Shown: one piece after another, positions 7,725 through 63,860 of the stretch
How positions within the stretch are numbered: the first letter of the stretch is position 1
Layout of the letters: each line of letters opens with the position of its first letter
Source: Parcubacteria group bacterium
GTDB taxonomy: Bacteria; Patescibacteriota; Minisyncoccia; Moranbacterales; UBA2206
Direction: 5' to 3'
Length of the DNA: 64,000 nt
Assembly (NCBI GenBank): GCA_041661275.1
Contig: JBAZUU010000002.1
Location: forward strand, 137,148 to 201,147
The notes under the pieces: generated by a model
Told to the model about the DNA's origin: nothing
Database searches by the model: none
What the model saw: only the letters and a program-made list of their open reading frames with translations
Translations under genes and position numbers: made by a program

Positions 7725-7747
7725 TAATTAATAAAGAAAATAAATTT

Positions 7748-8125
7748 ATGGAAAAGACATATCTGTGGAGAATTTTAACAATTTTACTTAGCCTTGTGCT
7801 ATTAGGTGCAGCGTATCTTATGAATGGACGAAATATTCTTTATTTGGAATCAATTAGTAGCCCATTGTTTGTTTTGAGTATGGCCATGTTGTTAGTTTCT
7901 ATCATCCTTCTTTTTATCAACGACAGAATTTTTCTCAAATGGCTTCGGTTTGCCATAGTTTGGGTTATTTTGTCAATAATTCTAATCGCGCTTACTCCCG
8001 AATATTCCGGCGGTTGGGTTCCTATGAATCCTGATCGGGAGTCGGTTTCCATTTGGATGGGTTCGCTTTTTGTTGTTTTGAGCCTGGCTAAAATTATTTG
8101 GGATTCATGGAAAGAGAAAAAATAA
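7748..8125 (+). CDS. Small polytopic membrane protein, hypothetical
   Basis: About four hydrophobic helices; no recognisable family. Confidence 0.5.
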   Translation: MEKTYLWRILTILLSLVLLGAAYLMNGRNILYLESISSPLFVLSMAMLLVSIILLFINDRIFLKWLRFAIVWVILSIILIALTPEYSGGWVPMNPDRESVSIWMGSLFVVLSLAKIIWDSWKEKK

Positions 8126-8320
8126 TAGGAAAAAAACACTGGGTATTCAGTCTAGTAGTGCTCGTGGTTGTTATAATCGCGGTATTAATTATTGTAGACA
8201 TGTTTTCAATTGGAACAATTTATTAATTTTGAAAAAAATATTTGGGACACATGGAAAGAAAAAAATAATCCCCAATCTTAAATTAAGGTTGAATCCTTGA
8301 GCGACGCTCAAGGACTGCTC

Positions 8321-8351
8321 ATAAAAACATAAAAAGGAGCGCGAACTCCTT
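8321..8351 (-). terminator. Candidate rho-independent terminator for the HNH gene
   Basis: Hairpin AAGGAG-CGCGAA-CTCCTT at 8334-8351, followed on the minus strand by TTTTATGTTTTTAT. Confidence 0.4.
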
Positions 8352-8384
8352 CCTATGCTTGCTACAGGTTAGACTTAGATAAAT

Positions 8385-8633
8385 CTAAACGCCGTAACTA
8401 CGTGTTTTTTCATGACAGGGAACGCATAATATTCGACAATTATCAACGGTATCAGAACCGCCAGCTTCTTGTGAAATAATATGGTGCGCATGCCATTTCC
8501 GATCCTCAATTTTATTTTGAGGATCAAGCATCTTGTTGCATCGACCATTATGATTGCAGGCGCCTAAGGTGCATTCACACTTTCCGCCCGCTCTACGCCA
8601 CGCTTGGTTGATGACTTCTTGAGAAAAAGCCAT
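8385..8633 (-). CDS. HNH endonuclease (small, stand-alone)
   Basis: C.C..C.HNGRC ... HAHHII..GGSD..DNCRILCVPCH zinc-finger/HNH signature. Confidence 0.8.
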   Translation of the reverse strand: MAFSQEVINQAWRRAGGKCECTLGACNHNGRCNKMLDPQNKIEDRKWHAHHIISQEAGGSDTVDNCRILCVPCHEKTRSYGV

Positions 8634-8799
8634 TGCGTTACATTATGGCCTTACCCCTAGAATAAAGTCTTGTTGGTTATCCGACTTCTAGGGAATCGGA
8701 AAGACGTCTTCAATTTAATATTATAGCAGCTGTATTATTTTAGTCAAGTGCATTTATGCACAACTATAAAGTTATCCACAATCACTATAATAAAGGTAG

Positions 8800-8836
8800 T
8801 TGACGTGTACAAACAGTCATATATAATGTATATATG
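8800..8836 (+). promoter_or_regulatory. Sigma70-like promoter of the lexA-like gene (TTGACG-N16-TATAAT), apparently leaderless, overlapped by palindrome CATATATA-ATG-TATATATG
   Basis: -35 at 8800-8805 and -10 at 8822-8827. The ATG at 8834 is ~7 nt after the -10. Perfect 8+3+8 palindrome at 8818-8836. Confidence 0.45.
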
Positions 8837-9472
8837 AGTATAAAACTAACGCCAAAACAAAGGAACGTTTTAGAATTTATTTACACATTTTTAGAAAATT
8901 CTGGCTTTCCGCCGTCAATTTCCGAGCTAAAAGAAGAGCTCAATGTTTCCTCCAACCAATCAGTTCTGAATTTTTTGGATACGCTTGAAAAAAAGGGCTA
9001 TATAAAAAGAGAAAAGGATCAAGCAAGAGGGCTAAAAATTTTACCGATGGGAGCCAGGGAAATTGGCAAAGACGTTTTAATAAAAGTAGTTGGAACAAGT
9101 GCGGCTGGACCATATATAGAATCCTACGCAAATGCATTTTCGTTTTATCCAGTACAAAAAGGAATTTTGGAAAAAGAAAATATTGCTGATTCCCAGGAGA
9201 AAGTTTTTGTTATTCAGGTTCAGGGTGATTCAATGACAAATATTGGAATAGAAAATGATGATATGCTTTTGGTGAAAGAAGCTAAGGAATTTAAAAGCGG
9301 TGATATTGTGGTGGCGGAAACTGATGAGGGTGCGACTGTCAAAAGATTTATTGCTGAAGGTGGAAAAAGATATTTGAAGCCTGAAAATCCAAACTACGAA
9401 AATATTCTAATAATACCTGGCGAAGTGAGATTTAGAGGAAGAGTAATTTTAAATTTAAGTAAAATAAAATAA
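8834..9472 (+). CDS. lexA: LexA-family repressor (winged-helix DNA-binding domain + S24 peptidase)
   Basis: N-terminus matches the LexA DNA-binding domain (LTPKQRNVLEFI..SGFPPSISEL). QVQGDSM Ser nucleophile and a downstream Lys form the S24 dyad. Confidence 0.85.
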   Translation: MSIKLTPKQRNVLEFIYTFLENSGFPPSISELKEELNVSSNQSVLNFLDTLEKKGYIKREKDQARGLKILPMGAREIGKDVLIKVVGTSAAGPYIESYANAFSFYPVQKGILEKENIADSQEKVFVIQVQGDSMTNIGIENDDMLLVKEAKEFKSGDIVVAETDEGATVKRFIAEGGKRYLKPENPNYENILIIPGEVRFRGRVILNLSKIK

Positions 9473-9476
9473 CAAG

Positions 9477-11435
9477 ATGCTCGAAAAAAATTTGCCTGTC
9501 GAAATAATCAACAAAGTATTCCGTGATCCGGATATGCAATTTGGTTTGGCAAATTTTAGCGATGTGAAGCTGGACCAGGTTTTGAAAATTTTTGAAGGCA
9601 AGGAAGATAAGGGAAAATTCTATGCCAAATGCTTAAAGCGAGGGAAAGACATTTTGATCTATAATGAAGAAAAAAAATTAGGAAAACCTGAGGAGATAAT
9701 CCGCCAGCTCATGGTCTATAAGCTGGTTAATTTTTATAAATACCCTATCGACCGCATCGATGTTGAAGTCGACGTGCAATTCGGACGTGAAATTGGAAAA
9801 AAAAGAGCAGACATTGTGGTTTATCGGGAAGACTTGAAAACTCCCTATTTACTGGTTGAGGTTAAAAAGCCGGATGTGAAAGATGGATTGGGACAACTCA
9901 AAAGCTACGCCAATGCCACTGGCGCGCCGATCCTGATTCTGACCGACGGAAAAATACAAAATAATATTCTTAGAACGGATCCAAATCTTTTTGAAGACCT
10001 GCCGGAGATTCCAAAATTTAACGAAACAGTTGATGACGTACGCAAGGAAAAAATTTCTTACGCAGATTTAAAAGAAGTTGAAAACTTAAAACAGCTTATT
10101 TATGATCTTCAAGAAGTGGTGTTGGCAAACAGTGGCGTCGATTCATTCGACGAAATTTTTAAACTAGTTTACGCCAAACTTTATGATGAGCTGGAAACTC
10201 CAAGAAGTGATAATAGAAGATTTAGGGTTATCGCTGGCGTAACCAATAAGGAAAATCTAGCTAATATCTGTCGTCTATTCGAAGACGCTAAAAAAGAATG
10301 GAAAGATGTTTTCAAGCCTAACGATGAAATAGAAATTCCGGAAAATGTTATTGTTCCGGCAGTTTCACTTCTTCAGAAATTCCGACTTTTTGGTTCTAAC
10401 CTCCAAGTTATTGATGACGCCTTTGAATATCTCATAAACTTGGATGCCAAAGGAGAAAAGGGGCAATATTTTACTCCCCGTCATGTTATCGATATGGCGG
10501 TCAAAATGCTGGCGCCTACTCCCAAGGATTCCATAATTGACACAGCTGCCGGATCTTGCGGGTTTTTACTTCATGCTATGCAATATGTTTGGGACAAAGA
10601 GATTAACAAAGAAAAATACGGTGATGATTATAAAACCAGACAGAAAAATTATGCCGAAAAGCAATTATTTGGAATTGATTTTGATCCTCGCAGCGTAAAA
10701 ATTGGAAAAGCGATGATGCTCATTGCAGGGGACGGAAAAACCAATGTTACATTTGCAAATTCTCTTGATAGCGAAAATTGGAGCGATGACGCTCGGACGA
10801 GATTCCGCCCGTTTCTTGCTAACTCTAAGGACAGTGAAGAAAACCGAAAAAACCAGGAACGAATGACTGATTTTAATTTTGATATTGTTATGACCAATCC
10901 GCCCTTTGCCGGAGAGATAAAGGGCGTGCTTCTCAATCGCTATGACTTGGGTTTCAAATGGGATAAGGAATTTCAAAAAACATCGAAGCATCAAAACAAG
11001 GTTTCTAGGGATATTCTTTTCATTGAGCGAAATTTGAATTTCCTAAAGCCTGGCGGACGAATGGCAATTGTTTTGCCGCAAGGGGTTTTCAATAATACCA
11101 ATTCCGAATATGTCCGGCGGTTTATTATGAATAAAGCGAAAATCTTAGCAGTGGTCGGACTTCATGGAAATACTTTTAAGCCGCACACCGGAACAAAAAC
11201 ATCGGTTTTGTTTTTGGAAAAGTGGGCCGGAAAACCACTTGAAGATTGTCCAATTTTTATGGCTGTTTCGAAACGCGGCGGAAAAGACACGTCAGGAGAT
11301 TATGTTTATAGGAAAGATAGAGAGGGGAATGTGATGTATGATGCAAGTGGGAAGAAAATCATTGATCATGATTTGGATGAGATTGCGGAGGAGTTTTTGA
11401 AATTCACAAATGAAAGCTATCTTAAATTGCAATAA
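9477..11435 (+). CDS. Bifunctional restriction endonuclease-N6-adenine DNA methyltransferase, BcgI subunit A-like (Type IIB/IIG-like): N-terminal HsdR_N-type PD-(D/E)XK domain + gamma-class MTase
   Basis: ADIVVY..LLVEVKK nuclease core (~aa 110-135). AdoMet motif I DTAAGSCGFLL precedes motif IV NPPFAG. 652 aa. No helicase/HsdR gene nearby. Confidence 0.75.
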   Translation: MLEKNLPVEIINKVFRDPDMQFGLANFSDVKLDQVLKIFEGKEDKGKFYAKCLKRGKDILIYNEEKKLGKPEEIIRQLMVYKLVNFYKYPIDRIDVEVDVQFGREIGKKRADIVVYREDLKTPYLLVEVKKPDVKDGLGQLKSYANATGAPILILTDGKIQNNILRTDPNLFEDLPEIPKFNETVDDVRKEKISYADLKEVENLKQLIYDLQEVVLANSGVDSFDEIFKLVYAKLYDELETPRSDNRRFRVIAGVTNKENLANICRLFEDAKKEWKDVFKPNDEIEIPENVIVPAVSLLQKFRLFGSNLQVIDDAFEYLINLDAKGEKGQYFTPRHVIDMAVKMLAPTPKDSIIDTAAGSCGFLLHAMQYVWDKEINKEKYGDDYKTRQKNYAEKQLFGIDFDPRSVKIGKAMMLIAGDGKTNVTFANSLDSENWSDDARTRFRPFLANSKDSEENRKNQERMTDFNFDIVMTNPPFAGEIKGVLLNRYDLGFKWDKEFQKTSKHQNKVSRDILFIERNLNFLKPGGRMAIVLPQGVFNNTNSEYVRRFIMNKAKILAVVGLHGNTFKPHTGTKTSVLFLEKWAGKPLEDCPIFMAVSKRGGKDTSGDYVYRKDREGNVMYDASGKKIIDHDLDEIAEEFLKFTNESYLKLQ

Positions 11436-12264
11436 ATATATGAATAACCCAAAAAGTACCTTGGGTCAGAAATGGATAAATTTTTTAAATGCTGTTTTTA
11501 GTCCAGTTCCAATTTTTTCATTATTAGGCGGATTAGGGCTTCTTTATTTGTCGGTGCACTATAAAGATGATGGCAGATTTTCAATCCTAATTAATTTGGC
11601 GGGCTCTCTTTTGATTGGTATCGGCGGTGCCTTTATTAAAGACAGATATGTTGAACTATCAAATGAATCAATTCTTATAAAAAAAGGTCAATCGGCAGTA
11701 AGAAATTTAGAATCTATCGCAAAACAAATAGAACAAATAAGATCTTGGCTTAAGTTTTTTATTTCTAGTAAAACATCAGATAAAAGAGATCTTGAAGAAA
11801 TCAATCGTCATTTAAGCACTACCGAAATGAACATTGCATCTGGGTTAGCAGATTGGATTGATATTGTTCCAGAGTTAAATAAAAAGGCGGAAGAAATGGC
11901 TGAAAAAGCAAAAAGCTATGAAGAAGTTGTTAAAACCTATGTTGAGGAATTATTTAAAAATAAAAAGAAGCTTTTAGAAGTGGGAGAGAATAAAAAACTT
12001 AAAGAACGATTACAAGAAAGCATAAAAAACCTGGAAAAAGAAGTAAGAGATTTAAAAAAATATAGGCCAGAATTTACTGCGAGTGGAATAATTAGTAGCT
12101 CATCCTTTGGTTCAAATGGAAACGGTCTTTCTTATTTAAATCGAAACTCTCTTGCACGTGGCCTATCAAAAACTTGTTCAAATTGCGGCAGAGTATTCGA
12201 AGATGATATAAATAGGCTTACCATCGGTCCGGATTTGTGCGAGGAATGCAGAAAAACAATATGA
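11410..12264 (+). CDS. Membrane-anchored coiled-coil protein with C-terminal CxxC..CxxC zinc ribbon, unknown function; alternative start at 11439
   Basis: Two N-terminal TM helices, a long K/E-rich predicted coiled coil, and CSNCGRVF..CEEC. Overlaps both flanking RM genes by 26-28 nt (translational coupling). Confidence 0.5.
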   Translation: MKAILNCNKYMNNPKSTLGQKWINFLNAVFSPVPIFSLLGGLGLLYLSVHYKDDGRFSILINLAGSLLIGIGGAFIKDRYVELSNESILIKKGQSAVRNLESIAKQIEQIRSWLKFFISSKTSDKRDLEEINRHLSTTEMNIASGLADWIDIVPELNKKAEEMAEKAKSYEEVVKTYVEELFKNKKKLLEVGENKKLKERLQESIKNLEKEVRDLKKYRPEFTASGIISSSSFGSNGNGLSYLNRNSLARGLSKTCSNCGRVFEDDINRLTIGPDLCEECRKTI

Positions 12265-13598
12265 TAAACTGTTCAATAATCCAAAAATCCCATCTTGAAG
12301 GCGCGATGCGATTAGATGCTGAATATTATTGTAGCGATTCATTAATCGGGTCTAATTTTCATCTAGGCAAAGACGTTGTTTCTTTTGTTCAGTATGGTAC
12401 ATCAAAAGAATTAAACGAGGAAAATAGAGGCTATCCGGTTTTGCGGCTCAATGAATTTGAGGATTGGTTCGCGGGACAACCGACGAAATATTGCAATAAG
12501 ATTAGTGAACAAACTTTTAATGGTTTAAAGCTCAAAAAAGGGGATGTATTAATTTGCAGAACCAATGGGAATCCTAAGCTTGTAGGAAAAGCTGCTCTCG
12601 TTGCGGAAAATACCAACATTGCTTTTGCTTCGTATTTATTTAGAGTTCAAGCTGATTCTTTAAAAATTAATTCCGCCACACTTACTGCGTTTTTAAATTC
12701 TAAAATCGGCAGAGCAGAGATTGAAAAATTTATTATGCCTAGCATTCAATCTAACTTCAGCCCTGCTCAATTTAGACAAATTAAAATACCTATTTTTCCA
12801 CCAGCCTTACAAAAAGAAATTGAAACGCGTTTATTTGACTCATATGAACTTTTAGCCGATTCGAAATCTTCTTATCAGCAAGCTGAAGATTTACTATTAG
12901 AAGAGCTGGGATTAAAAAATTTTGATTTTGAAAAAATATTGTCATCAGTTGTTAATTATTCCGATGTTCTAGAAGCTGAAAGAATAGACGCAGAATATTT
13001 TCAGCCGAAATATGAAAAACTGATTTCGAAAATAAAGGAAAGAAATTATAAAACCTTGCCGGAAATTATAGAAAATGTGCCTGCTGTTTTTAACGCCGCT
13101 TCAAAACCGTCAGAAAATTTCAAATACGTAGAGTTATCAAATATTAATCCTTCCGTTGGAATAATTGATGGTTTTTCAGAAGTATCAGGAAGAGAAGCGC
13201 CAGGAAGAGCGAAAAGAATATTAAAGTCTGGCGATGTAATAGTTTCAAGTGTAGAAGGATCGCTGGAAAAAGTTGCGCTGGTTGATAAAGAGCAAGATGG
13301 ACATCTTGCATCAACAGGATTTTTTCAATTGCGAAGTGATAAAATTTTGCCAGAAGTTTTACTTGTTATAGCCAGGAGTTTGGTTTTTCAAATGCAACTC
13401 GAAAAGCAATGTGCTGGAACAATTCTTACTGCCGTGCCAAAAGAGGCGATAAAAAATATTGTTGTACCAATCTTACCGAAAGAAACGCAGCAAAAAATCG
13501 CTGATCTTGTGCGACAGTCGCACAAAGCGCGGAAAAAGGCGAAAGAGCTTTTAGAAGAAGCGAAAAGGAAAGTTGAAGGGATGATAGAGAATAAATAA
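12237..13598 (+). CDS. hsdS: Restriction-modification specificity subunit (HsdS/BcgI-B-like, two target-recognition domains)
   Basis: Duplicated halves (RLDAEYY.. / RIDAEYFQP..). Central and C-terminal conserved helical spacers (IPIFPPALQKEIETRL..; ILPKETQQKIADLVR..). Confidence 0.85.
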   Translation: MRGMQKNNMINCSIIQKSHLEGAMRLDAEYYCSDSLIGSNFHLGKDVVSFVQYGTSKELNEENRGYPVLRLNEFEDWFAGQPTKYCNKISEQTFNGLKLKKGDVLICRTNGNPKLVGKAALVAENTNIAFASYLFRVQADSLKINSATLTAFLNSKIGRAEIEKFIMPSIQSNFSPAQFRQIKIPIFPPALQKEIETRLFDSYELLADSKSSYQQAEDLLLEELGLKNFDFEKILSSVVNYSDVLEAERIDAEYFQPKYEKLISKIKERNYKTLPEIIENVPAVFNAASKPSENFKYVELSNINPSVGIIDGFSEVSGREAPGRAKRILKSGDVIVSSVEGSLEKVALVDKEQDGHLASTGFFQLRSDKILPEVLLVIARSLVFQMQLEKQCAGTILTAVPKEAIKNIVVPILPKETQQKIADLVRQSHKARKKAKELLEEAKRKVEGMIENK

Positions 13599-13851
13599 TT
13601 CTATGGAACAAAAAGAATTTGAGAAATTTATATTGTACGTATTGATTGTAGTGTTTTTTACCGAGCAACTTCCTTTTGACATGAATAATGAGAAAAAACA
13701 CCAAAGCCCGCATATACCAGAGGAAAATCGGACTTCTGCAGTCTTGGGTGTTCCCACATATTCTATGTCTATCACAGCCTCTCCCTCACAAGCGCCAGAT
13801 GAGTAAGAATAGTCGAAAAGAAAAAGAAAAGAAAAAGGGGTCAAGAAAAGA

Positions 13852-13898
13852 AAAAGGGGTCAAGTACCTTTAATTACGTAATTAATTACTTACAAAAA
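13852..13898. repeat. Island gene-terminal motif, copy 1 (GGGTCAAGTACCTTTAATTACGTAATTAATTACTTACA)
   Basis: Near-identical to the 5' parts of copies at 14891.. and 18261... Contains the palindrome TTAATTACGTAATTAA. Confidence 0.6.
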
Positions 13899-15348: not shown

Positions 15349-16950
15349 ATGCTTGAAAAACAATTAGAAAAATATTTTAACTTTACCGAATTTCGTCCCG
15401 GTCAAAGGGAAATCGTGGAAACTATTATGTCCGGTCGTGATGTGGTGGCTCTTATGCCGACTGGCGGGGGAAAATCTCTTTGCTATCAATTGCCGGCGAT
15501 CATGAGTGACAAAATTTCGGTCGTCATTTCTCCGCTTATCGCGCTTATGAAAGATCAGGTAGACAGTCTCAACGCGCGCGGAATTCCGGCCACTTTTATA
15601 AACAGCAGTTTAACTTCAGATGAAATAGGAAAACGAATCGAAGACATTAAAAATAACCGGACAAAAATAATTTATGTGGCGCCGGAAAGATTTGGAAACG
15701 CCTCCTGGCAAAAATTGTTTTCCGAACTCGATGTTTTTTTGTTCGCGGTTGATGAAGCTCATTGTGTGTCGCAATGGGGTCATGATTTTCGTCCGGACTA
15801 TCTGGCCATAAAAAAATATATTGCCAACTTGAAGAATCGTCCGGTGGTGGCTGCCTTTACGGCGACGGCCACGCCGGAAGTTAAAAATGATATCATCGAA
15901 CGCCTGGAACTGCAAAATCCCGAAGTTTTTATCCGTGGTTTTGATCGGCCAAATTTGAAATTTTTTGTGGAAAGCAACTTGAAACCGAAGGAAAAATACG
16001 CGGAAGTTTTGCGGATAATTAAGGCTATGGCCGGATCGGGGATAGTTTACGCTTTGACGCGAAAAGACACTGAATTTATCGCCGAATTTTTGCGTCAAAA
16101 TAATATAGTAGCCGCGGCTTATCACGCGGGAATGGAGGCGGAGAAGCGAAAACGGATCCAGGAGGAATTTATGGACAATAAATTCAAGGTAATTGTGGCA
16201 ACCATTGCTTTTGGCATGGGAGTGGACAAAGCGGATATCAGATTTGTGATCCACAGCGGTATGCCCGGAAGCATAGAAGGCTATTATCAGGAAGCCGGAA
16301 GAGCGGGACGCGATGGCGAACAAGCCTTTTGTATCTTGCTTCATGGCAAAAAAGACGTCAGTACCCACAAGTTTTTTATTCGTATGAGTCAGGACGAAAT
16401 GTTTCTGCAAAATAAGACATGGGAAGAGATAAAAAGGGTAGTTGGCATAAAATATGACCGGCTGGAAAAAATGATCGAATATGCTACTCGCCCCAATTGC
16501 CGCCGAAAGATGATCTTGAAATATTTTAGCGATCCGGATTACGAAAGACATAAGGAAAATTGCCGAGGGTGTGATTTTTGCCTGGATTGGAAAAAATCAG
16601 CCGGAGATGCCCAGAAAAGAAAGGAGGCTATCCGTGGTAACAAAAGTTTTCTATCTTCCACTGTTAAAATATCAGCCGATTATTATGAGAAAGGAACGTC
16701 TCTTGAAAATATAGCCAGGATAAGGGGACTTGGTTTAAGGACAATCATTGATCATCTGATCGACTGGTACGCCACCGGAGGAAATCTGCGAGTGGAAGAT
16801 CTTATCAACGCGGAAGAAGAAGGGCTGATAATTTCTGCTATTGAAAAGATCGGAAGCCGAGACAGGCTAAAGCCGATAAAAGATATTCTGCCGGAAGAGA
16901 TCGGTTATGAAAAGATAAAGCTGGTGATAGTTAAGTGGGAAAGAAAGTAG
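15349..16950 (+). CDS. recQ: ATP-dependent DNA helicase RecQ (short form with zinc-binding RQC and C-terminal HTH-like region)
   Basis: FRPGQREIVETIMSGRDVVALMPTGGGKSLCYQLPA; DEAHCVSQWGHDFRPDY; C..C..C.C zinc motif. Confidence 0.9.
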   Translation: MLEKQLEKYFNFTEFRPGQREIVETIMSGRDVVALMPTGGGKSLCYQLPAIMSDKISVVISPLIALMKDQVDSLNARGIPATFINSSLTSDEIGKRIEDIKNNRTKIIYVAPERFGNASWQKLFSELDVFLFAVDEAHCVSQWGHDFRPDYLAIKKYIANLKNRPVVAAFTATATPEVKNDIIERLELQNPEVFIRGFDRPNLKFFVESNLKPKEKYAEVLRIIKAMAGSGIVYALTRKDTEFIAEFLRQNNIVAAAYHAGMEAEKRKRIQEEFMDNKFKVIVATIAFGMGVDKADIRFVIHSGMPGSIEGYYQEAGRAGRDGEQAFCILLHGKKDVSTHKFFIRMSQDEMFLQNKTWEEIKRVVGIKYDRLEKMIEYATRPNCRRKMILKYFSDPDYERHKENCRGCDFCLDWKKSAGDAQKRKEAIRGNKSFLSSTVKISADYYEKGTSLENIARIRGLGLRTIIDHLIDWYATGGNLRVEDLINAEEEGLIISAIEKIGSRDRLKPIKDILPEEIGYEKIKLVIVKWERK

Positions 16951-17222: not shown

Positions 17223-18242
17223 ATGAAAAATAATATATTAAATAACAATAATTCCGGCGAAATAATTATATATGAAGGCGCGGATGGGGCGCCTAGCATT
17301 GAAGTGCGCGTTGAGGGTGAGACGGTGTGGCTGTCACAATCACAACTCGTTGAGCTTTTTCACTCAAGCAAGGCAAATGTGAGCGAGCATATCAAGCACA
17401 TATTTAAAGAGGCTGAATTAAGCCAAGATGCAGTTGTTCGGAATTTCCGAACAACTGCGAGTGATGGAAAAAATTACAACATTGAGCACTACAATCTCGA
17501 CATGATTATCTCTTTGGGTTATAGAATAAAGTCGGATATTGCCACACATTTTCGCCAGTGGGCGACTTCGCGACTTCGTGAATACCTCGTTCAAGGATTC
17601 ACAATGAATGATGAGTTTTTGAAAAACAATGGCGGTGGCTTATATTGGAAGAAACTCTTGTCTCGCATCCGTGATATTCGATCCAGTGAAAAGATGCTGT
17701 ATAGACAAGTCCTGGATCTCTATGCCACAAGCGCGGATTATGATCCTAAATCTCTACATTCAATTAAGTTTTTCAAAATTGTGCAAAACAAATTGCACTA
17801 CGCCGCGCATAAACAGACAGCATCAGAAGTTATTTATAATCGCGCCGATAGTGATAAAAAATTTATGGGTTTGACGGTTTTTGCAGGAGATTTGCCAGTA
17901 CTCGAAGAAGTGAGAATTGCTAAAAATTATTTGTCCGCGCAAGAGTTGGAAAGATTGAACAGACTTGTCTCGGCATATTTCGAATTGGCGGAATTGCGCG
18001 CTATGGATCAGCAAGTAATGCATATGGCGGATCATATTGCATCTTTAGATAAATTACTTTCTGATTACGGCGAAGGTGTTTTGATTGATGCTGGAAAAGT
18101 AACGCATAAAAAAGCCATAGAAAAAGCAGAAAGTGAATACAAAAAATATCAAACTAAAACACTTTCGCCCGCAGAAGGAGCGTATTTGGAAAGCATTAAA
18201 ACTTTAGAGAAAAAGGTTAAAAATAATAAACCAAAGAAATAA
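17223..18242 (+). CDS. RhuM-family (virulence-associated) protein
   Basis: ETVWLSQSQLVELF..HIKHIFKE..KNYNIEHYNLDMIISLGYRIKS matches the RhuM family signature block. Confidence 0.8.
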   Translation: MKNNILNNNNSGEIIIYEGADGAPSIEVRVEGETVWLSQSQLVELFHSSKANVSEHIKHIFKEAELSQDAVVRNFRTTASDGKNYNIEHYNLDMIISLGYRIKSDIATHFRQWATSRLREYLVQGFTMNDEFLKNNGGGLYWKKLLSRIRDIRSSEKMLYRQVLDLYATSADYDPKSLHSIKFFKIVQNKLHYAAHKQTASEVIYNRADSDKKFMGLTVFAGDLPVLEEVRIAKNYLSAQELERLNRLVSAYFELAELRAMDQQVMHMADHIASLDKLLSDYGEGVLIDAGKVTHKKAIEKAESEYKKYQTKTLSPAEGAYLESIKTLEKKVKNNKPKK

Positions 18243-18363: not shown

Positions 18364-18435
18364 TGACAGGTTTGTTTTTAGGCGGAAAATGTGCTAAAAA
18401 TAATATATAGCGAACGTTAATTTTCCAGGACTTTT

Positions 18436-19602
18436 ATGAAAGTTTTATTTTTTAATTACGAATATCCGCCACTTGGCGGGGGAGCGGCTTATGCTTCACA
18501 GAATATTTTGAGAGAATATGCCAAACTCACTGATGTTGAAGTGGATTTTGTGACGTCGTCACTGGACAATCAATATCACCTGGAAAAAATGGGCGAAAAT
18601 ATCAGAGTCCATCGGCTTCCCATCGGCAAGAATAAAAATAATCTGACATATCAATCGCAAAAAGATCTCCTGGTCTATGCCTGGAAGTCCTATTTTTTTT
18701 CCAAAAAACTGATCAGCGAGGCTAATAAGAATAAAAAACCATATAATCTGACCCATTCCTTTTTTTCCGTCCCTTGCGGATTTGTTTCTATGATACTAAA
18801 GAAAAAATATAGATTGCCTTACATTGTTTCTCTTCGCGGATCCGATGTTCCGGGCTATTCGGAAAGGTTTTCTTTCATCTACTGTTTTTTGAAACCTCTG
18901 ATAATTCGTATTTGGAAAAAAGCCGGAGCAGTTGTGGCTAACAGTTCGATGCTTCGCGATCTGGCTTTGAAAAGTAATAACCAACAAAAGGTTGATGTTA
19001 TCTATAATGGGATAAATATTGAACATTTTAGGCCTGGAGCTATTTCAAGAGAAAATAAAAATTTCACTATTCTTTGCGCTTCCCGTCTTTCTAGAAGAAA
19101 GGGGTTTGATTATGTTATTGACGCCTTCAATAAAATTCACGAAAAATATCCAGAAGCACGCTTGGTGATTGCCGGTGGGGAGGGGAATGCCGAAGAAGAA
19201 TTAAAAAACCAGACGAAAGAATTAAAATTAGAAAATAAAATAACTTTTACCGGTTTTGTGACACCTAACACCCAATTTTTGAAATATTACAATGCCGCTG
19301 ATGTTTTTGTCCTGCCGTCGCTCAATGAAGGAATGAGCAACAATATGCTGGAAGCGATGGCCAGCGGCCTCCCGATAATTATGACGCCGACCGGCGGGGC
19401 GGAAGAGCTGATAAAAGACGGCGTCAATGGGTGTATCGTCAGATTCAAAGATAGCGCGGACATTGCGGAAAAATTGGAAAAGTTGATAAACAATCCAGAA
19501 CTTTGCAAAAAAATGGGCATTGAAAGCCGTAAGATCGCTGAAAAAATGAGTTGGAAAAGCGTGGCGGAGAAATATTATGAATTATATAAAAACATAGCAT
19601 GA
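18436..19602 (+). CDS. GT4 glycosyltransferase
   Basis: C-terminal EGMSNNMLEAMASGLPII..GG..E (E-x7-E) motif. Confidence 0.85.
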   Translation: MKVLFFNYEYPPLGGGAAYASQNILREYAKLTDVEVDFVTSSLDNQYHLEKMGENIRVHRLPIGKNKNNLTYQSQKDLLVYAWKSYFFSKKLISEANKNKKPYNLTHSFFSVPCGFVSMILKKKYRLPYIVSLRGSDVPGYSERFSFIYCFLKPLIIRIWKKAGAVVANSSMLRDLALKSNNQQKVDVIYNGINIEHFRPGAISRENKNFTILCASRLSRRKGFDYVIDAFNKIHEKYPEARLVIAGGEGNAEEELKNQTKELKLENKITFTGFVTPNTQFLKYYNAADVFVLPSLNEGMSNNMLEAMASGLPIIMTPTGGAEELIKDGVNGCIVRFKDSADIAEKLEKLINNPELCKKMGIESRKIAEKMSWKSVAEKYYELYKNIA

Positions 19603-37285: not shown

Positions 37286-37340
37286 CTCTCTCTGTCACTA
37301 TAAGAATCGTGACATCTCTCCCAAAGGGAGAGAGGGACAC
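37286..37340. repeat. MITE/REP-like element family 2, type B
   Basis: CTCTCTC-TGTCAC..GTGACA-TCTCTCCC-AAAG-GGAGAGAGGG; same architecture as 62525-62573 and 41760-41808. Confidence 0.55.
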
Positions 37341-40282: not shown

Positions 40283-40654
40283 TTAAAAATTCTTATAAAT
40301 CTCTTTTTTCTCATCACCAGTTGAAACTTCAATGGTGATTTTTTTGTTTTCTAAATTCCTAGAGTTCAACTCTTGGAAATTCCTAGAGCTAAACTCTAGG
40401 AGGCCATCTTTTCTAATATTTTCATCAGCTTCTTTTATTCTTTCTTTGTCAATTAAAATTACATAATGAAAATTAGTTTTGCCACTGTGATTTTCTATGA
40501 CAAAATTCAAGCTATTATCCTTGGGACTGACAAAATAAATAGACCACCAGTTTTTGCCAAAATTTAAAGTTTCAAATTTTGAGCCTACAGAAAGAAGATA
40601 AGCAGAGCTTAGGATGAATAACGCAACTATAAATATTATTAATTTTTTTTGCAT
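40283..40654 (-). CDS. Small exported/membrane-anchored protein, hypothetical
   Basis: N-terminal signal anchor; internal direct DNA repeats (TTCCTAGAG x2). Confidence 0.45.
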   Translation of the reverse strand: MQKKLIIFIVALFILSSAYLLSVGSKFETLNFGKNWWSIYFVSPKDNSLNFVIENHSGKTNFHYVILIDKERIKEADENIRKDGLLEFSSRNFQELNSRNLENKKITIEVSTGDEKKEIYKNF

Positions 40655-40657
40655 AAA

Positions 40658-42649
40658 TTATTTCCTATAATACACAGCAATATCGTTACTCATATAAACC
40701 TGATTGAATTCTGGCAGTTTTTGGAATTGGGGAGCGTCATACATTGGATTAATAACCAAAAAATCAGTTTTAGTGTCTGAAAAACATTGTTTTGCCTCAT
40801 CGGAACCGGGGCTGGAGATCATAACTAGCGTACAAATTTCGCCGCTGCGGCTGCCTTGCGCTTCATAGCGGCTAAAAAATCCACGTGATTGGGGATATTT
40901 ATACCCGCGCATAAAAAACAATTTCATCCAGGAATCGGCAGTGATATAGTTGTGATCTTTGAGGATCTGGTCGTTGGCGTTTGTATTATCGGCCAGATAT
41001 TTTGAAACATCAAAAGTCTGATTGAGTTGGGTGAGTTCCGCTTGTTTTTTGAAAGCTTGGGCGGAGTCATTGAGTCCTGTAACCAAAACAAAAGCTAAAA
41101 GGATGAGAAATGCTGATTTCAGAAGTTTGTCCATCACATACGGTTTTTCGCATAATTTCTTGCCCCAAAGTGTTTCGTATGATTCCGGACGAAAAACAGT
41201 ATAAAAAGCAAAGGCGGAGAGAATGGCCAGGGGATAGCTTAGATAATTTCCAATGCGGCTTGATGGCAAATCAACAAATAGCAAATTAGGAAAAGATGAC
41301 ATAATAAAAAGCATAAAAGTCCAAGAGGCAAGAAGCGCATATCCGAAATTTTTTCTTCGGAAAGTCAAGATCAGTAATAGAAATCCCAAAAATCCAAGTG
41401 CAAGACGCGGCTCACCGACTGTTTGTTTGATGTTGGTGATGGTGAGGCCGACCCGCGTTGATTTTGTGGCTGCTCCGACAGCGGTGTCAACGGCTTTAGT
41501 GTTGACATAAGTCGGAGTAAAGACAAAAAAGAAAAATATGAGGCCAAGGACAAAAATTCCCAAAACTTGCGGCGAAAAAATAATTTTAGCGGATTTTTTG
41601 AGAACAACTTCTACGTCTTTATAGTTAACGATCAAAAATAGGGGAATGAGCAAGAGGAATATGAACAAAAATATAAAAGACGTGAGGTGGTGGGTGTAGA
41701 AAAGGCCAAAGGTGGTGAAGACGGCGAGGGAAAGGAAAGTCTTACTATTTTTAATAAGAGCCCTCTCCTGTCGCGAAGACGCGACATCCTCTCCCAGAAG
41801 GAGAGGAGGATATTGATTTTTCGAATTAAGAAATTCGAAAGTTCTGTAGTAGAAATAAAATGCCAGTGGCATAAGGAAATTACCGAAAATATTTCCCATG
41901 ACACCACCACTGACATATTTGGCTTGGGGGGATGCGACTGCAAAAAGAACGCCCAAAAAAAGTAATGTTAAAATAGCAATTAATTTATTCTTAAAAATTC
42001 GCAAAGTTAAAATGAAAACAGTCAGGATCCCTAGTAAATTTATTAAGAATAAAACAACAACGGGCCAGCCGGTAAGAAAATTTAATCCGGTCAAAATGTT
42101 AATGCTGGCAAACATGGTGTGTTCGCCAATAATGAAATCAGGCATTCCTTCATAACTGGTCAGTTGATGAGTTTCGGCAATAGTTTTGGCCCAATAGAGA
42201 TGATGGCCAAAATCAGTGGCTGTCGGCGCTATGGCGGTGGAAAGATAGGCAGTCTTAATGAAAATGGTCAGAAATAGCAAAAGTAAAATTAATATAAATT
42301 GGTTTTTGGAGAAAGAAAATAATTTATCTTCGGGCTCGTTTTGGACACGGAGTGTCCAATTGGACACTCCGTGTCCAAGGAATTTATAAATGGAAAAACA
42401 AACCGCTGAAAAAAATAAAACTCCTAAAATTATAGATATTCGTGTAATGCCTATATTTAACTTCGAATAAGTAAAAAGAATAAAATCAACAACAATTATA
42501 CTTAGGCCAAAAGAAATAATAAATCTTTCCAATGTGCTTAGTGCTGCGCTTTTTCTAAACACAGCCAAAAGCAAACAAAATCCCGGCAAAAACATCAAAA
42601 ATCCCACGGCCAGGAAAAATAATATTTGGTTTTGGATAATATTAAGCAT
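40658..42649 (-). CDS. Large polytopic membrane protein, GT-C-like (putative glycosyltransferase); contains in-frame palindromic inserts
   Basis: 663 aa, more than 12 TM helices. Insert-encoded peptide PPLLLGEDVASSRQERAL from the family-2 element (41760-41808). A 38-nt perfect palindrome at 42341-42378 encodes GHGVSNWTLRV. Confidence 0.55.
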   Translation of the reverse strand: MLNIIQNQILFFLAVGFLMFLPGFCLLLAVFRKSAALSTLERFIISFGLSIIVVDFILFTYSKLNIGITRISIILGVLFFSAVCFSIYKFLGHGVSNWTLRVQNEPEDKLFSFSKNQFILILLLLFLTIFIKTAYLSTAIAPTATDFGHHLYWAKTIAETHQLTSYEGMPDFIIGEHTMFASINILTGLNFLTGWPVVVLFLINLLGILTVFILTLRIFKNKLIAILTLLFLGVLFAVASPQAKYVSGGVMGNIFGNFLMPLAFYFYYRTFEFLNSKNQYPPLLLGEDVASSRQERALIKNSKTFLSLAVFTTFGLFYTHHLTSFIFLFIFLLLIPLFLIVNYKDVEVVLKKSAKIIFSPQVLGIFVLGLIFFFFVFTPTYVNTKAVDTAVGAATKSTRVGLTITNIKQTVGEPRLALGFLGFLLLILTFRRKNFGYALLASWTFMLFIMSSFPNLLFVDLPSSRIGNYLSYPLAILSAFAFYTVFRPESYETLWGKKLCEKPYVMDKLLKSAFLILLAFVLVTGLNDSAQAFKKQAELTQLNQTFDVSKYLADNTNANDQILKDHNYITADSWMKLFFMRGYKYPQSRGFFSRYEAQGSRSGEICTLVMISSPGSDEAKQCFSDTKTDFLVINPMYDAPQFQKLPEFNQVYMSNDIAVYYRK
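41760..41808. mobile_element. MITE family 2 (type B) copy inserted in-frame within a CDS
   Basis: CCCTCTCCTGTCGCGAAGACGCGACATCCTCTCCCAGAAGGAGAGGAGG, ~92% identical to the intergenic copy at 62525-62573. Confidence 0.6.
42341..42378. repeat. 38-nt perfect palindrome inside a CDS (TTGGACACGGAGTGTCCAATTGGACACTCCGTGTCCAA)
   Basis: Two self-complementary 15-mers (GGACAC-NNN-GTGTCC) in inverted arrangement around AATT. Confidence 0.6.
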
Positions 42650-43760: not shown

Positions 43761-43795
43761 AATAAACTTACTTAGACATCAAATGTCTAAGTGGA

Positions 43796-51763: not shown

Positions 51764-51809
51764 CCCGCCGGGCGTGCCAATTGTGGTGCCCGGCGGTTTT
51801 TTATTTTTA
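51764..51809 (+). terminator. Rho-independent terminator after purE
   Basis: CCGCCGGGC..GCCCGGCGG stem followed by TTTTTTATTTTT. Confidence 0.7.
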
Positions 51810-51850
51810 CGAAATACGAAATTAAGTACGAAATACGAAGGTACGAAAAT
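51808..51850. repeat. TACGAAA repeat element (TTTTACGAAATACGAAATTAAGTACGAAATACGAAGGTACGAAAATCG)
   Basis: Near-identical to the 45-nt in-frame insert in iscS at 63147-63192; weaker relative at 55807-55840. Confidence 0.6.
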
Positions 51851-55739: not shown

Positions 55740-55848
55740 CTGATCTTATAAATATTTATTTTTTCTAAAGTCGCAGGGGAAGGCGGCTTTTTATCTATAA
55801 AAGTATGCGAACGCGCGCTACGAACGCGCACATACGAATATTAAAAAT

Positions 55849-57847: not shown

Positions 57848-57913
57848 TCCTCCTCTCCCTTTGGGAGAGGATGTCAGCCTGAATTTTCTTAAATTCTGGC
57901 TGACAGGAGAGGG
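57848..57913. repeat. MITE/REP-like element family 2, type A copy
   Basis: CCTCTCCCTTTGGGAGAGGATGTCAGCCTGAATTTTCTTAAATTCTGGCTGACAGGAGAGGGA, ~90% identical to 37173-37239. Confidence 0.6.
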
Positions 57914-62424: not shown

Positions 62425-62481
62425 CTCTCCTTCTCTCCCTTTGGGAGAGAAGTCCTGATTCTTATCAGGACAGAGAGGGAA
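62425..62481. repeat. MITE/REP-like element family 2, type A variant
   Basis: TCTCTCCC-TTTG-GGAGAGA + AGTCCTGAT-TCT-TATCAGGAC + AGAGAGGGA. Confidence 0.55.
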
Positions 62482-62524: not shown

Positions 62525-62573
62525 CCCTCTCCTGTCGCGAAGACGCGACCTCCTCTCCCGAAGGGAGAGGAGG
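62525..62573. repeat. MITE/REP-like element family 2, type B copy
   Basis: CCCTCTCCTGTCGCGAAGACGCGACCTCCTCTCCCGAAGGGAGAGGAGG; paralog of the intragenic 41760-41808 copy. Confidence 0.6.
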
Positions 62574-62594: not shown

Positions 62595-63860
62595 ATGAGA
62601 AAAATTTATTTAGATCACGGAGCAACAACGCCAGTTGATAAAAAAGTATTAGCGGCCATGATGCCGTATTTTTCCGATAAGTTTGGCAATGCTATGTCTA
62701 TCCATAATTTTGGCTCTGTTGCCAATGAAGCGGTGGAAAAATCAAGGAAGCAAACTGCGGATTTTTTTGGCGCGCAGCCAGAAGAAATGATTTTTACCAG
62801 TGGCGCGACAGAATCAAATAATTTAGTGGTAAAGGGCGTATTAAATGCATATTATTTTACTCCTAAGGCACTCGGTGCCCAACACGAAGGAATAGAGAGG
62901 CACCGAGTGCCTTCAAGGCCTCATATAATCACCACTGCCTTTGAGCATCATTGCGTCCTGGATTCTTGTAAAGAAGTAGAAAAAGAAGGACTGGCTGAGG
63001 TGACTTATATTAAGCCAAATAAAGACGGGATTATAAAAGTGGAAGATATCAAAAAAGCCATCAAGTCTAACACCATTTTAGTGTCTGTTATGTATGTTAA
63101 CAACGAAATTGGAACAGTTCAGTCTATTGCCGAAATTGGAAATCTTTTACGAAATACGAAAAAAATACGAAATACGAAAGTACGAACGAAATATCCCATA
63201 TTTCACACTGACGCGACACAAGCAATTAATTATTTTGACTGTAATGTTGATAAGTTCGGTGTAGACTTATTGTCTATGTCCGCGCACAAAATTTATGGAC
63301 CGAAAGGAATCGGCGCTTTGTATATTAGAAAAGGTACGCCAATAAAAAGAGTCCAGGACGGCGGGGGACAGGAAAATAATAAACGAGCCGGGACGCATAA
63401 TGTTCCAGGTATTGTGGGCTTGGGCGCGGCCATGGAATTAGTTAAAAAGGAAAAAGTAAAAGGTAAAAGTATTTTAGAAATAAGAAATTATCTTATAGAA
63501 AGAGTATTAAAAGAAATTCCGCAGGCGAAACTGAATGGATCAAAAATAAAACGTTCTCCGAACAATGCTAATTTTTCTTTTAAAAACGTAGAAGGGGAGA
63601 GTCTTCTTATGATGCTTGATATGGAAGGTATTGCCGCTTCAACTGGCAGCGCTTGTACCTCTGGTAATCTTGAACCGTCGCACGTTCTTATGTCTCTTGG
63701 CATGAAACACGAAGACGCTCATGGGTCGCTCAGATTAACGCTTGGAAAAAGCACAACAAAAAAAGAAATTGACTATACGGTAAATAAATTAAAAAAAATC
63801 GTGGAAAAGATCAGGAAAGTCTCGGGGAAAGTTTTGGAAGAATATTATTCGAAAAAATAA
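62595..63860 (+). CDS. iscS: Cysteine desulfurase IscS/NifS, with two in-frame repeat-derived insertions
   Basis: YLDHGATTP, SAHKIYGPKG (PLP Lys) and STGSACTSG (active Cys). Insert peptides TPKALGAQHEGIERHRVPSRP and RNTKKIRNTKVRTKY come from 62865-62913 and 63147-63192. Confidence 0.9.
   Translation: MRKIYLDHGATTPVDKKVLAAMMPYFSDKFGNAMSIHNFGSVANEAVEKSRKQTADFFGAQPEEMIFTSGATESNNLVVKGVLNAYYFTPKALGAQHEGIERHRVPSRPHIITTAFEHHCVLDSCKEVEKEGLAEVTYIKPNKDGIIKVEDIKKAIKSNTILVSVMYVNNEIGTVQSIAEIGNLLRNTKKIRNTKVRTKYPIFHTDATQAINYFDCNVDKFGVDLLSMSAHKIYGPKGIGALYIRKGTPIKRVQDGGGQENNKRAGTHNVPGIVGLGAAMELVKKEKVKGKSILEIRNYLIERVLKEIPQAKLNGSKIKRSPNNANFSFKNVEGESLLMMLDMEGIAASTGSACTSGNLEPSHVLMSLGMKHEDAHGSLRLTLGKSTTKKEIDYTVNKLKKIVEKIRKVSGKVLEEYYSKK
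62865..62913. mobile_element. Perfect 15-bp-arm palindrome (AAGGCACTCGGTGCC-N19-GGCACCGAGTGCCTT) in-frame inside iscS
   Basis: Seen directly; falls between conserved IscS blocks where homologs have no extra residues. Confidence 0.6.
63147..63192. mobile_element. TACGAAA-repeat element copy, in-frame inside iscS
   Basis: TTTTACGAAATACGAAAAAAATACGAAATACGAAAGTACGAACGAAAT is almost identical to the intergenic copy at 51808-51850. Confidence 0.6.

Follow-up and report, generated by a model that had tools for sequence, protein, structure and literature searches.

How an essential enzyme comes to carry two blocks of repetitive DNA within its reading frame is the question raised by iscS, a gene near the end of a 64,000-nt stretch of a Parcubacteria group bacterium of the Moranbacterales (contig JBAZUU010000002.1, positions 137,148 to 201,147; hereafter the window). 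The gene (62595..63860, + strand) encodes a 421-aa class V aminotransferase of the IscS/NifS type, a cysteine desulfurase, assigned from its open reading frame, Pfam domain and fold match. It contains a 49-nt double hairpin at 62865..62913 (site 1) and a 45-nt array of TACGAAA heptamers at 63148..63192 (site 2), both in frame on the + strand. Our analyses favour, with a probability of about 70%, an explanation in which short dispersed hairpin and array repeats were copied into the genome and were kept in genes only where they fell in frame within tolerant loops; the two segments would be copies of two kinds of short repeat that are dispersed across Moranbacteria genomes.

The host gene is otherwise canonical, as an earlier note drawn from the letters of this DNA had stated. 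Its product carries the pyridoxal phosphate (PLP)-lysine motif SAHK and the catalytic cysteine loop SACTSG, scores 255.6 bits against Pfam Aminotran_5 (PF00266), and has cysteine desulfurases as its top sequence matches in the Protein Data Bank (E = 1e-103). An Rrf2 regulator gene upstream and a NifU (NifU_N) gene downstream complete an Rrf2–iscS–nifU operon. The AlphaFold (AF2) model of the protein (predicted TM-score 0.87) has an intact core fold, which superposes on NFS1 and on the IscS proteins of E. coli and A. fulgidus with TM-scores of 0.90–0.95 when normalised to the target, and domain, both motifs, fold and isc operon setting agree in placing the enzyme among the class I cysteine desulfurases of the IscS/NifS group. 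In this model, per-residue confidence (pLDDT) values below 50 were confined to residues 92–104 at site 1 and to the catalytic cysteine loop, the site 2 block (residues 191–200) had a mean pLDDT of 56, and both sites were modelled as coil with a helix on one side and a strand on the other. When the sequence was aligned to that of the solved desulfurase 9wep, gaps fell at exactly site 1 and site 2. The placement of both segments in flexible loops is thus supported; the earlier note had expected surface loops.

The arms of the site 1 element (62865–62879 and 62899–62913) are 15 nt each and 100% complementary across a 19-nt spacer, as first described; the element begins in phase 0 and encodes KALGAQHEGIERHRVPS, residues 91–107. 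It is built from a quasi-palindrome, AAGGCAC-TCG-GTGCC(TT), in two inverted copies. An imperfect palindromic unit of 20–40 nt whose inverted doublets form one long hairpin is characteristic of repetitive extragenic palindromic sequences (REPs) and their doublet form, REPINs, and the AAGGCAC-TCG-GTGCCTT unit of site 1 has this architecture. The predicted RNA fold of the element is very stable (−30.9 kcal/mol, z = −6.2; 0 of 200 shuffles were as stable), and the window as a whole contains nine perfect stems of at least 11 nt compared with 0–2 in Markov shuffles. Among the compared loci (L numbers), L162 has a 25-nt-arm palindrome at iscS site 1 that is made from the same unit, AAGGCAC-nnn-GTGCCTT, and lies in the same codon phase; a second L162 copy of this family (family B) lies within a GT1 glycosyltransferase gene. 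Doublets built like the window's site 1 element were also found at 42341 in the window and in L081, L161, L162 and L168.

The site 2 element consists of two heptamer units, AAAA, two units, G and 1.5 units, and encodes LRNTKKIRNTKVRTKY (residues 185–200). Tandem Repeats Finder reported period-7 arrays at 63148–63186 (5.9 copies) and at 51808–51848, the latter within an intergenic TACGAAA array (51808..51850, + strand) that follows the terminator of purE (Pfam AIRC) and lies ~115 nt upstream of a LytR-family gene. Aligned to each other, the two arrays differ by 3 mismatches and 1 gap and are equal in 39 of 43 columns, bearing out the near identity claimed for them, and TACGAAATACGAAA with up to two mismatches occurs seven times in the window against 0.89 expected. 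A looser relative had also been proposed ahead of pyrG (CTP_synth_N), the gene after 55840. A repeat is indeed present in this L9–pyrG spacer (55808..55838, + strand; (T/G)NCGAACGCGC × 2.3), but its period is 13 nt and just the (T/G)NCGAA core is in common with the TACGAAA arrays, so that only a degenerate kinship stands; the 64 kb contain two TACGAAA arrays and this one relative. In L162 the orthologous spacer contains a complete TACGAAW inverted-array element, and in L165 there is nothing in it.

Arrays of this family recur in and around iscS of other genomes. In L161, a TACGAAW array occupies the same position of iscS in the same frame as site 2 of the window, and the two arrays are identical at 38 of 42 nt, whereas the host genes share ~0.70–0.72 identity (0.72 being the mean over array-sized windows) and 0.49 at third codon positions; the array is thus more conserved than the gene around it. 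L166 has a TACGAAW array at iscS site 1, L089, L090, L104 and L165 have arrays immediately 3′ of the iscS stop codon, and L099, L144 and L162 have them in other spacers. Because the array comes in both orientations, first forward and then reverse, in L089, L144 and L162, the full element is an inverted-repeat structure, of which the window holds half-elements. Internal interruptions are common to the arrays, and a TTAAG spacer recurs among them, including in L162. No RNA structure was detected in the two TACGAAA arrays of the window (z = +1.8 and −0.35). A role for TACGAAW arrays as IscR/Rrf2 operators was rejected, since copies follow purE, precede pyrG and occur elsewhere, and the Rrf2 gene has none upstream of it.

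Comparison of 120 Moranbacteria-like IscS sequences, with distant NifS/IscS proteins from a scan of genome contigs used solely as a no-insert baseline, revealed that both loops are hypervariable. Among the matches listed, NifS/IscS proteins from outside the candidate phyla radiation (CPR) are unextended at site 1 and have a site 2 of 10 residues. In the 120 orthologues, the length of site 1 varies between 11 and 32 residues and that of site 2 between 10 and 32 (12–21 aa in most). The long helix after residue 280 contains a third variable site. About a third of the orthologues have extra site 1 segments. The extra peptides form recurrent families (for example, KNTRANSREM.PGAQ, SKF[HY]PVKSA..GVKQFN.V, SQF.TNYES..N.R.TKN and FWTSDVQ..GHPMS), and the peptides at the loops differ entirely between lineages. 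Distinct site 1 DNAs numbered 43; the best perfect stems measured 6–25 nt in the 14 long ones and 3–6 nt in the 29 short ones (Mann–Whitney p = 1e-7), with stems of 10–25 nt in nine of the 14. None of the 14 distinct long site 1 segments, and none of the site 2 segments seen, breaks the frame or contains a stop codon; among the matches listed no frame-broken iscS was seen except in genes cut by contig ends.

The long site 1 segments are varied. L081 carries TTGGAGACTAAGTCTCCAATTGGAGACTTAGTCTCCAA, L083 carries ACCCTGTTAAAT...ATTTAACAGGGT, and L161, L165 and L168 carry doublets of TGGACAyCsGATGTCCA; the closest relative of the window, L164 (82% aa identity), has a single 23-nt hairpin, and site 1 of L163 is empty. 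At site 2, the segment in the window is 21 aa long, no longer than in many orthologues and ~9 aa longer only when set against its nearest relatives, and elsewhere sites 2 and 3 are filled by 7-nt or 14-nt tandem repeats other than TACGAAA, such as TACTAAA (L163), GCTAAAA (L162, L004) and AAAGCGC (L109). Site 3 of the window (63445–63471) contains AAAAGGAAAAAGT twice; at this site AAAGCGC occurs three times in L109 and a 14-nt unit twice in L161, and periods of 7 or 14 nt are recurrent in the coding loops of the clade. In a neighbour-joining tree built with the loops masked, which is approximate, the window's nearest neighbours (P0011, P0017, P0003 and P0008) have an empty site 1 and a short site 2 and so lack both elements, and the other carriers of the window's two elements, P0010 and P0015, were placed in other clades. 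To account for this distribution, the same loops must either have gained elements more than once or have lost them precisely many times.

These comparisons revise several views of the locus put forward in the earlier note. Two repeat-derived segments in a housekeeping enzyme had seemed unusual, but this does not apply within the clade, where about a third of the orthologues have extra site 1 segments and nine of 14 long DNAs have perfect stems of at least 10 nt. The proposal that the loops can be co-opted found no support; the peptides are wholly different between lineages. The contrary possibility that orthologues would show ordinary indels, of equivalent length and unrelated sequence, applies in part to site 2, at which many orthologues have segments of similar length that lack TACGAAA and consist of other 7-nt repeats.

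The same repeat families also occur at non-homologous sites. An intergenic 23-nt hairpin in the window (family A, ACTTAGACAT-CAA-ATGTCTAAGT; 43770..43792, + strand; z = −4.5) is identical, at 23 of 23 nt, to the in-frame iscS site 1 element of L164. Family C (CCCyGTTAAAT...ATTTAACrGGG) has four placements: L083 carries it at iscS site 1, L165 at iscS site 3, L007 within an open reading frame and L166 in a spacer. Family E is found at site 1 of L161, L165 and L168 as well as in an L168 spacer. In the window, a second gene is affected: a double hairpin, TTGGACACGGAGTGTCCAATTGGACACTCCGTGTCCAA, lies in frame (42341..42378, − strand; encoding LGHGVSNWTLRVQ; z = −9.0) within a DUF1616 membrane protein gene (40658–42649) and is constructed like the elements at site 1 of L081, L161, L165 and L168. 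The DUF1616 loop is hypervariable in 120 homologues; the double hairpin is common to P0122, and P0124, P0127, P0129 and P0130 are without it. The iscS–nifU and L9–pyrG spacers likewise contain different elements, or none, genome by genome, and the related families span 23–55 nt. Both iscS segments are thus repeat-derived and of two unrelated kinds, as had been proposed. The further suggestion that such elements target coding DNA is not supported, as the same families are common in spacers and, because only in-frame copies in permissive loops survive, tolerance explains their recurrence at the same loops equally well.

We propose that these repeats are copied to many places, spacers and genes alike, and that a copy in an essential gene would persist only if its length were a multiple of three, if it were stop-free and if it lay in a loop tolerating extra residues. 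Site 1 would be a REPIN-like double hairpin comprising two inverted copies of a ~17-nt quasi-palindrome, and site 2 one half of a TACGAAW heptamer-array element that in full has its forward array separated by a spacer from a reverse one. IscS would offer two helix-to-strand loops, together with the third variable site, as tolerant places, so the same loops could be hit repeatedly, by different families, in different lineages. To judge from the open reading frames, the extra residues would be translated as disordered surface loops and would be neutral passengers.

As to how copies are made, the leading candidate is single-strand hairpin transposition in trans by a Y1/HUH transposase (a REP-associated tyrosine transposase (RAYT) or an IS200-like enzyme), although we regard it as doubtful; a template-switch or slippage origin is possible for some segments, especially the unrelated 7-nt repeats at sites 2 and 3. 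One related genome contains a plausible enzyme. L165 carries an IS200-like Y1 transposase gene (Y1_Tnp; 15436–16011, − strand; 27.6 bits against a Pfam cut-off of 23) between the gluRS and acetyltransferase genes, a syntenic position from which it is absent in the other loci. Short GC-rich hairpins, in pairs, border the gene on either side, and on each side the hairpin closest to it ends in GTAG (GGGCAC-TTTA-GTGCCC-GTAG is one example); such an arrangement is the mark of a RAYT accompanied by its REPs. Its family comprises 88 relatives, the few named ones mostly from Patescibacteria, and JGI annotates one as RayT. A tblastn search of all compared loci with the L165 transposase returned the gene itself only.

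Several observations weigh against dispersal and its proposed mobiliser. The window and the next 10 kb of the genome (L169; 74 kb in total) gave no tblastn match to the L165 Y1 transposase, and none of the 88 homologues was traced to the 262-kb contig, by an indirect proxy only. Classical REPs have a conserved GTAG or CGTC tetranucleotide at one end of the unit; neither the window elements nor families A–E carry such a tag, which was found only on the hairpins that flank the L165 gene. Codon alignment of filled and empty sites revealed no visible target-site duplication, although the exact insertion boundaries are uncertain. Each family is low-copy in the sequence examined, and the 64-kb window has no other copy of the site 1 arm at up to three mismatches. 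The translation of the extra residues is predicted from open frames. In a census of lineage-specific insertions across 21 neighbouring ortholog clusters, every stem of at least 11 nt fell in iscS site 1, and 8–9-nt hairpins recurred at one WecG-family site. With strong perfect palindromes confined to iscS site 1, the census did not support the idea that all genes are hit equally, and iscS is hit more often than tolerance alone obviously predicts. The loci compared were chosen around iscS, which biases the apparent clustering near this gene.

The alternative that fares best is that the elements arose in place, as fold-back or template-switch hairpins and slippage arrays within length-tolerant loops, their likeness to one another being convergent. 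In its favour, several of the palindromes are perfect with zero-length loops, hairpin sequences are very diverse, and sites 2 and 3 of other orthologues hold unrelated 7-nt and 14-nt tandem repeats; short templated inverted duplications are reported at DNA breaks of yeast (PMC11724301). Independent origins are nevertheless hard to reconcile with identical or near-identical units at non-homologous sites, exemplified by the 23-nt hairpin that the L164 iscS gene shares in full with a window spacer, with the four placements of family C in four genomes, or with arrays that have the same internal interruptions (the two in the window are equal in 39 of 43 columns) and share the TTAAG spacer found in L162. 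We therefore consider an origin in place unlikely, and prefer the copying of dispersed repeats.

The segments could instead be functional cis-elements under selection in the isc operon, with the hairpin tuning the translation or stability of the mRNA and the array binding a protein. The very stable site 1 hairpin, the array that outdoes its host gene in nucleotide conservation, the dominance of iscS site 1 among palindromic insertions in the 21-cluster census and the placement of TACGAAW arrays in iscS (window, L161, L166) or right after its stop codon (L089, L090, L104, L165) speak for such a function. Yet the nearest relatives have neither element, other lineages have unrelated sequences at the same site, and the same families occupy unrelated genes and spacers. 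The array lacks RNA structure (z = +1.8), an Rfam search of the whole window returned no family at gathering score, and the clustering at iscS is biased by loci that were all centred on this gene. A cis-regulatory role is, on balance, improbable.

That the segments are never translated, through ribosomal bypassing or excision from the mRNA, has in its favour that bypass elements, such as those of T4 gene 60 and yeast mitochondrial genes, resemble them in size (45–49 nt) and hairpin form. Bypassing or excision would, however, be expected to leave about two thirds of the segments breaking the frame, and in the long site 1 segments (14 distinct), as in every site 2 segment seen, the frame is kept and stops are absent, with no frame-broken iscS among the matches listed apart from contig-end cuts; we regard this reading as very improbable. 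Artefacts of assembly or sequencing, conceivable in a metagenome-assembled genome where palindromes can be assembly chimeras, and ordinary indels of no particular origin, are very improbable: the exact 421-aa protein was found on five contigs from four sources (JGI, NCBI, ENA and Logan), two independent assemblies, from ENA over 11.4 kb and from Logan over 5.2 kb, match the window with 100% identity, so that neither element is an error of the kind the earlier note had allowed for, related elements occur in many other samples, and the palindromy and repeat identity are far beyond chance.

Among known systems, the closest phenomenon to the dispersed repeats proposed here is that of the Rickettsia palindromic elements (RPEs; Ogata et al. 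2000, 2002), which, as summarised in PMC10969869, are inserted in frame in housekeeping genes; the window would present an RPE-like phenomenon in the CPR, with much shorter elements. In both cases, dispersed palindromic repeats lie in spacers and in frame in unrelated housekeeping genes of small genomes, with an extra peptide (here deduced from open frames) at positions compatible with the fold. They differ in size, RPEs measuring ~100–150 bp and encoding a conserved peptide of 30–50 aa, compared with 49 and 45 nt (16–17 aa) here and 23–55 nt across the related families, and in diversity, RPEs forming few families with a conserved peptide each, as opposed to many families that are often inverted doublets of a ~17-nt unit, or heptamer arrays. 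Also unlike RPEs are the CPR host and the repeated occupation of the same loop by different families. With such a host phylum and such sizes, the elements are not expected to belong to RPE-1 to RPE-10.

The likeness to REPs and REPINs lies in short imperfect palindromes, in inverted doublets that form one long hairpin, and in the Y1_Tnp gene with GTAG-tagged hairpins in the related Moranbacteria genome L165. REPs are, however, extragenic and high-copy, whereas the iscS elements are intragenic, low-copy and without a GTAG/CGTC tag, and no cognate RAYT was found in the 74 kb of this genome examined. Hairpin elements of organelles are at times found inside genes. They are similarly very short and populate AT-rich compact genomes, as do fungal double-hairpin elements and GC clusters and the repetitive hairpin-forming elements of sponges (PMC2800124), but they are organellar, and the likeness is one of form. 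In some yeasts, in-gene hairpin inserts are bypassed by the ribosome and not translated, which is at odds with the in-frame segments of iscS. Translational bypass elements (T4 gene 60, the byps of yeast mitochondria) break the frame or carry stops, and the iscS segments do not. [quoted passage not shown] They usually exceed 100 bp and have terminal inverted repeats and target-site duplications; the present elements are much shorter, with no visible duplication, and at site 1 the whole element is the inverted repeat.

We found no prior description of palindromic, RAYT or REPIN elements in the CPR in the literature searched, which is no proof of absence. We tentatively suggest, at slightly less than even odds, that Moranbacteria, and perhaps the CPR, harbour undescribed ultra-short mobile repeats (hairpins, double hairpins and heptamer-array elements of 23–100 nt) that enter essential genes in frame, that at least five or six families have independently colonised the IscS and DUF1616 loops, and that they are moved in trans by a sparse RAYT-like Y1 enzyme or by an unknown mechanism. 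Were this so, ultra-short repeats would be a major and ongoing source of protein-length variation in reduced genomes. Protein-coding palindromes have hitherto been treated as a Rickettsia peculiarity, and here the same outcome would be seen in an unrelated small-genome lineage with elements three times shorter than RPEs. Filled and empty alleles at the same loops of an essential enzyme form a natural series, enabling tests of how selfish DNA becomes new peptide loops, of how much insertion a PLP enzyme tolerates and of what mobilises very short hairpins. Odd peptides and length variation in CPR proteins (‘...HPVKSA..FNGV...’, ‘...WTSDVQ..GHP...’) would also become recognisable as repeat-derived, and not as lineage-specific functional motifs.

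Hairpins also crowd the spacer ahead of the window's iscS gene. The Rrf2–iscS spacer is 175 nt long, compared with 8–13 nt in L162, L167 and L168, and contains four hairpins (62430–62452, 62453–62470, 62534–62549 and 62549–62573, + strand). A CTCTCCC-N3-GGGAGAG hairpin is present in four copies in the window, two in this spacer and the others at 37316–37332 and 57853–57869. A second hairpin, GTCnnGAT-TCTT-ATnnnGAC, adjoins both the copy at 37316 and that at 62433, suggesting a composite element of ~60 nt. Farther along the same genome, ~6.4 and 7 kb past the end of the window, a CTCTCCC-type hairpin (17842–17862 of L169) and an 11-nt-stem hairpin (18435–18459) both lie inside priA, and the LigT–priA spacer (17362–17405) holds a 15-nt-arm double hairpin (CGCGGACTGTCCGCT...AGCGGACAGTCCGCG) with a relative in L094 (8260–8315). 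In L164, two palindromic, MITE-like copies of ~100 nt (GTCATTGCGAG...CTCGCAATGAC) flank iscS, one in each spacer (9813–9940 and 11149–11279). Directly downstream of nifU in L163, a phage-type integrase and unannotated genes replace the conserved neighbours (3629–12968), probably as an integrated element.

Other repeats of the window lie farther from iscS. A perfect 14-nt-arm palindrome, GCAGTTGTTCGGAA-T-TTCCGAACAACTGC (17430–17458), within a RhuM-family gene (17223–18242) encodes AVVRNFRTTA and was rejected as an in-gene insertion, as it encodes the conserved start of the RhuM Pfam domain. An imperfect double hairpin with a GGAA-A-TTCC centre (40357–40401) is in frame in a 123-aa open reading frame without a Pfam match (40283–40654, − strand), and the same centre is found within large palindromes of L161 (3064–3114) and L162 (7893–7947). 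Finally, a perfect 19-nt tandem repeat, AAGAAAAGAAAAAGGGGTC, is present in 2.2 copies at 13824–13864, its period equal to that of the double-hairpin unit.

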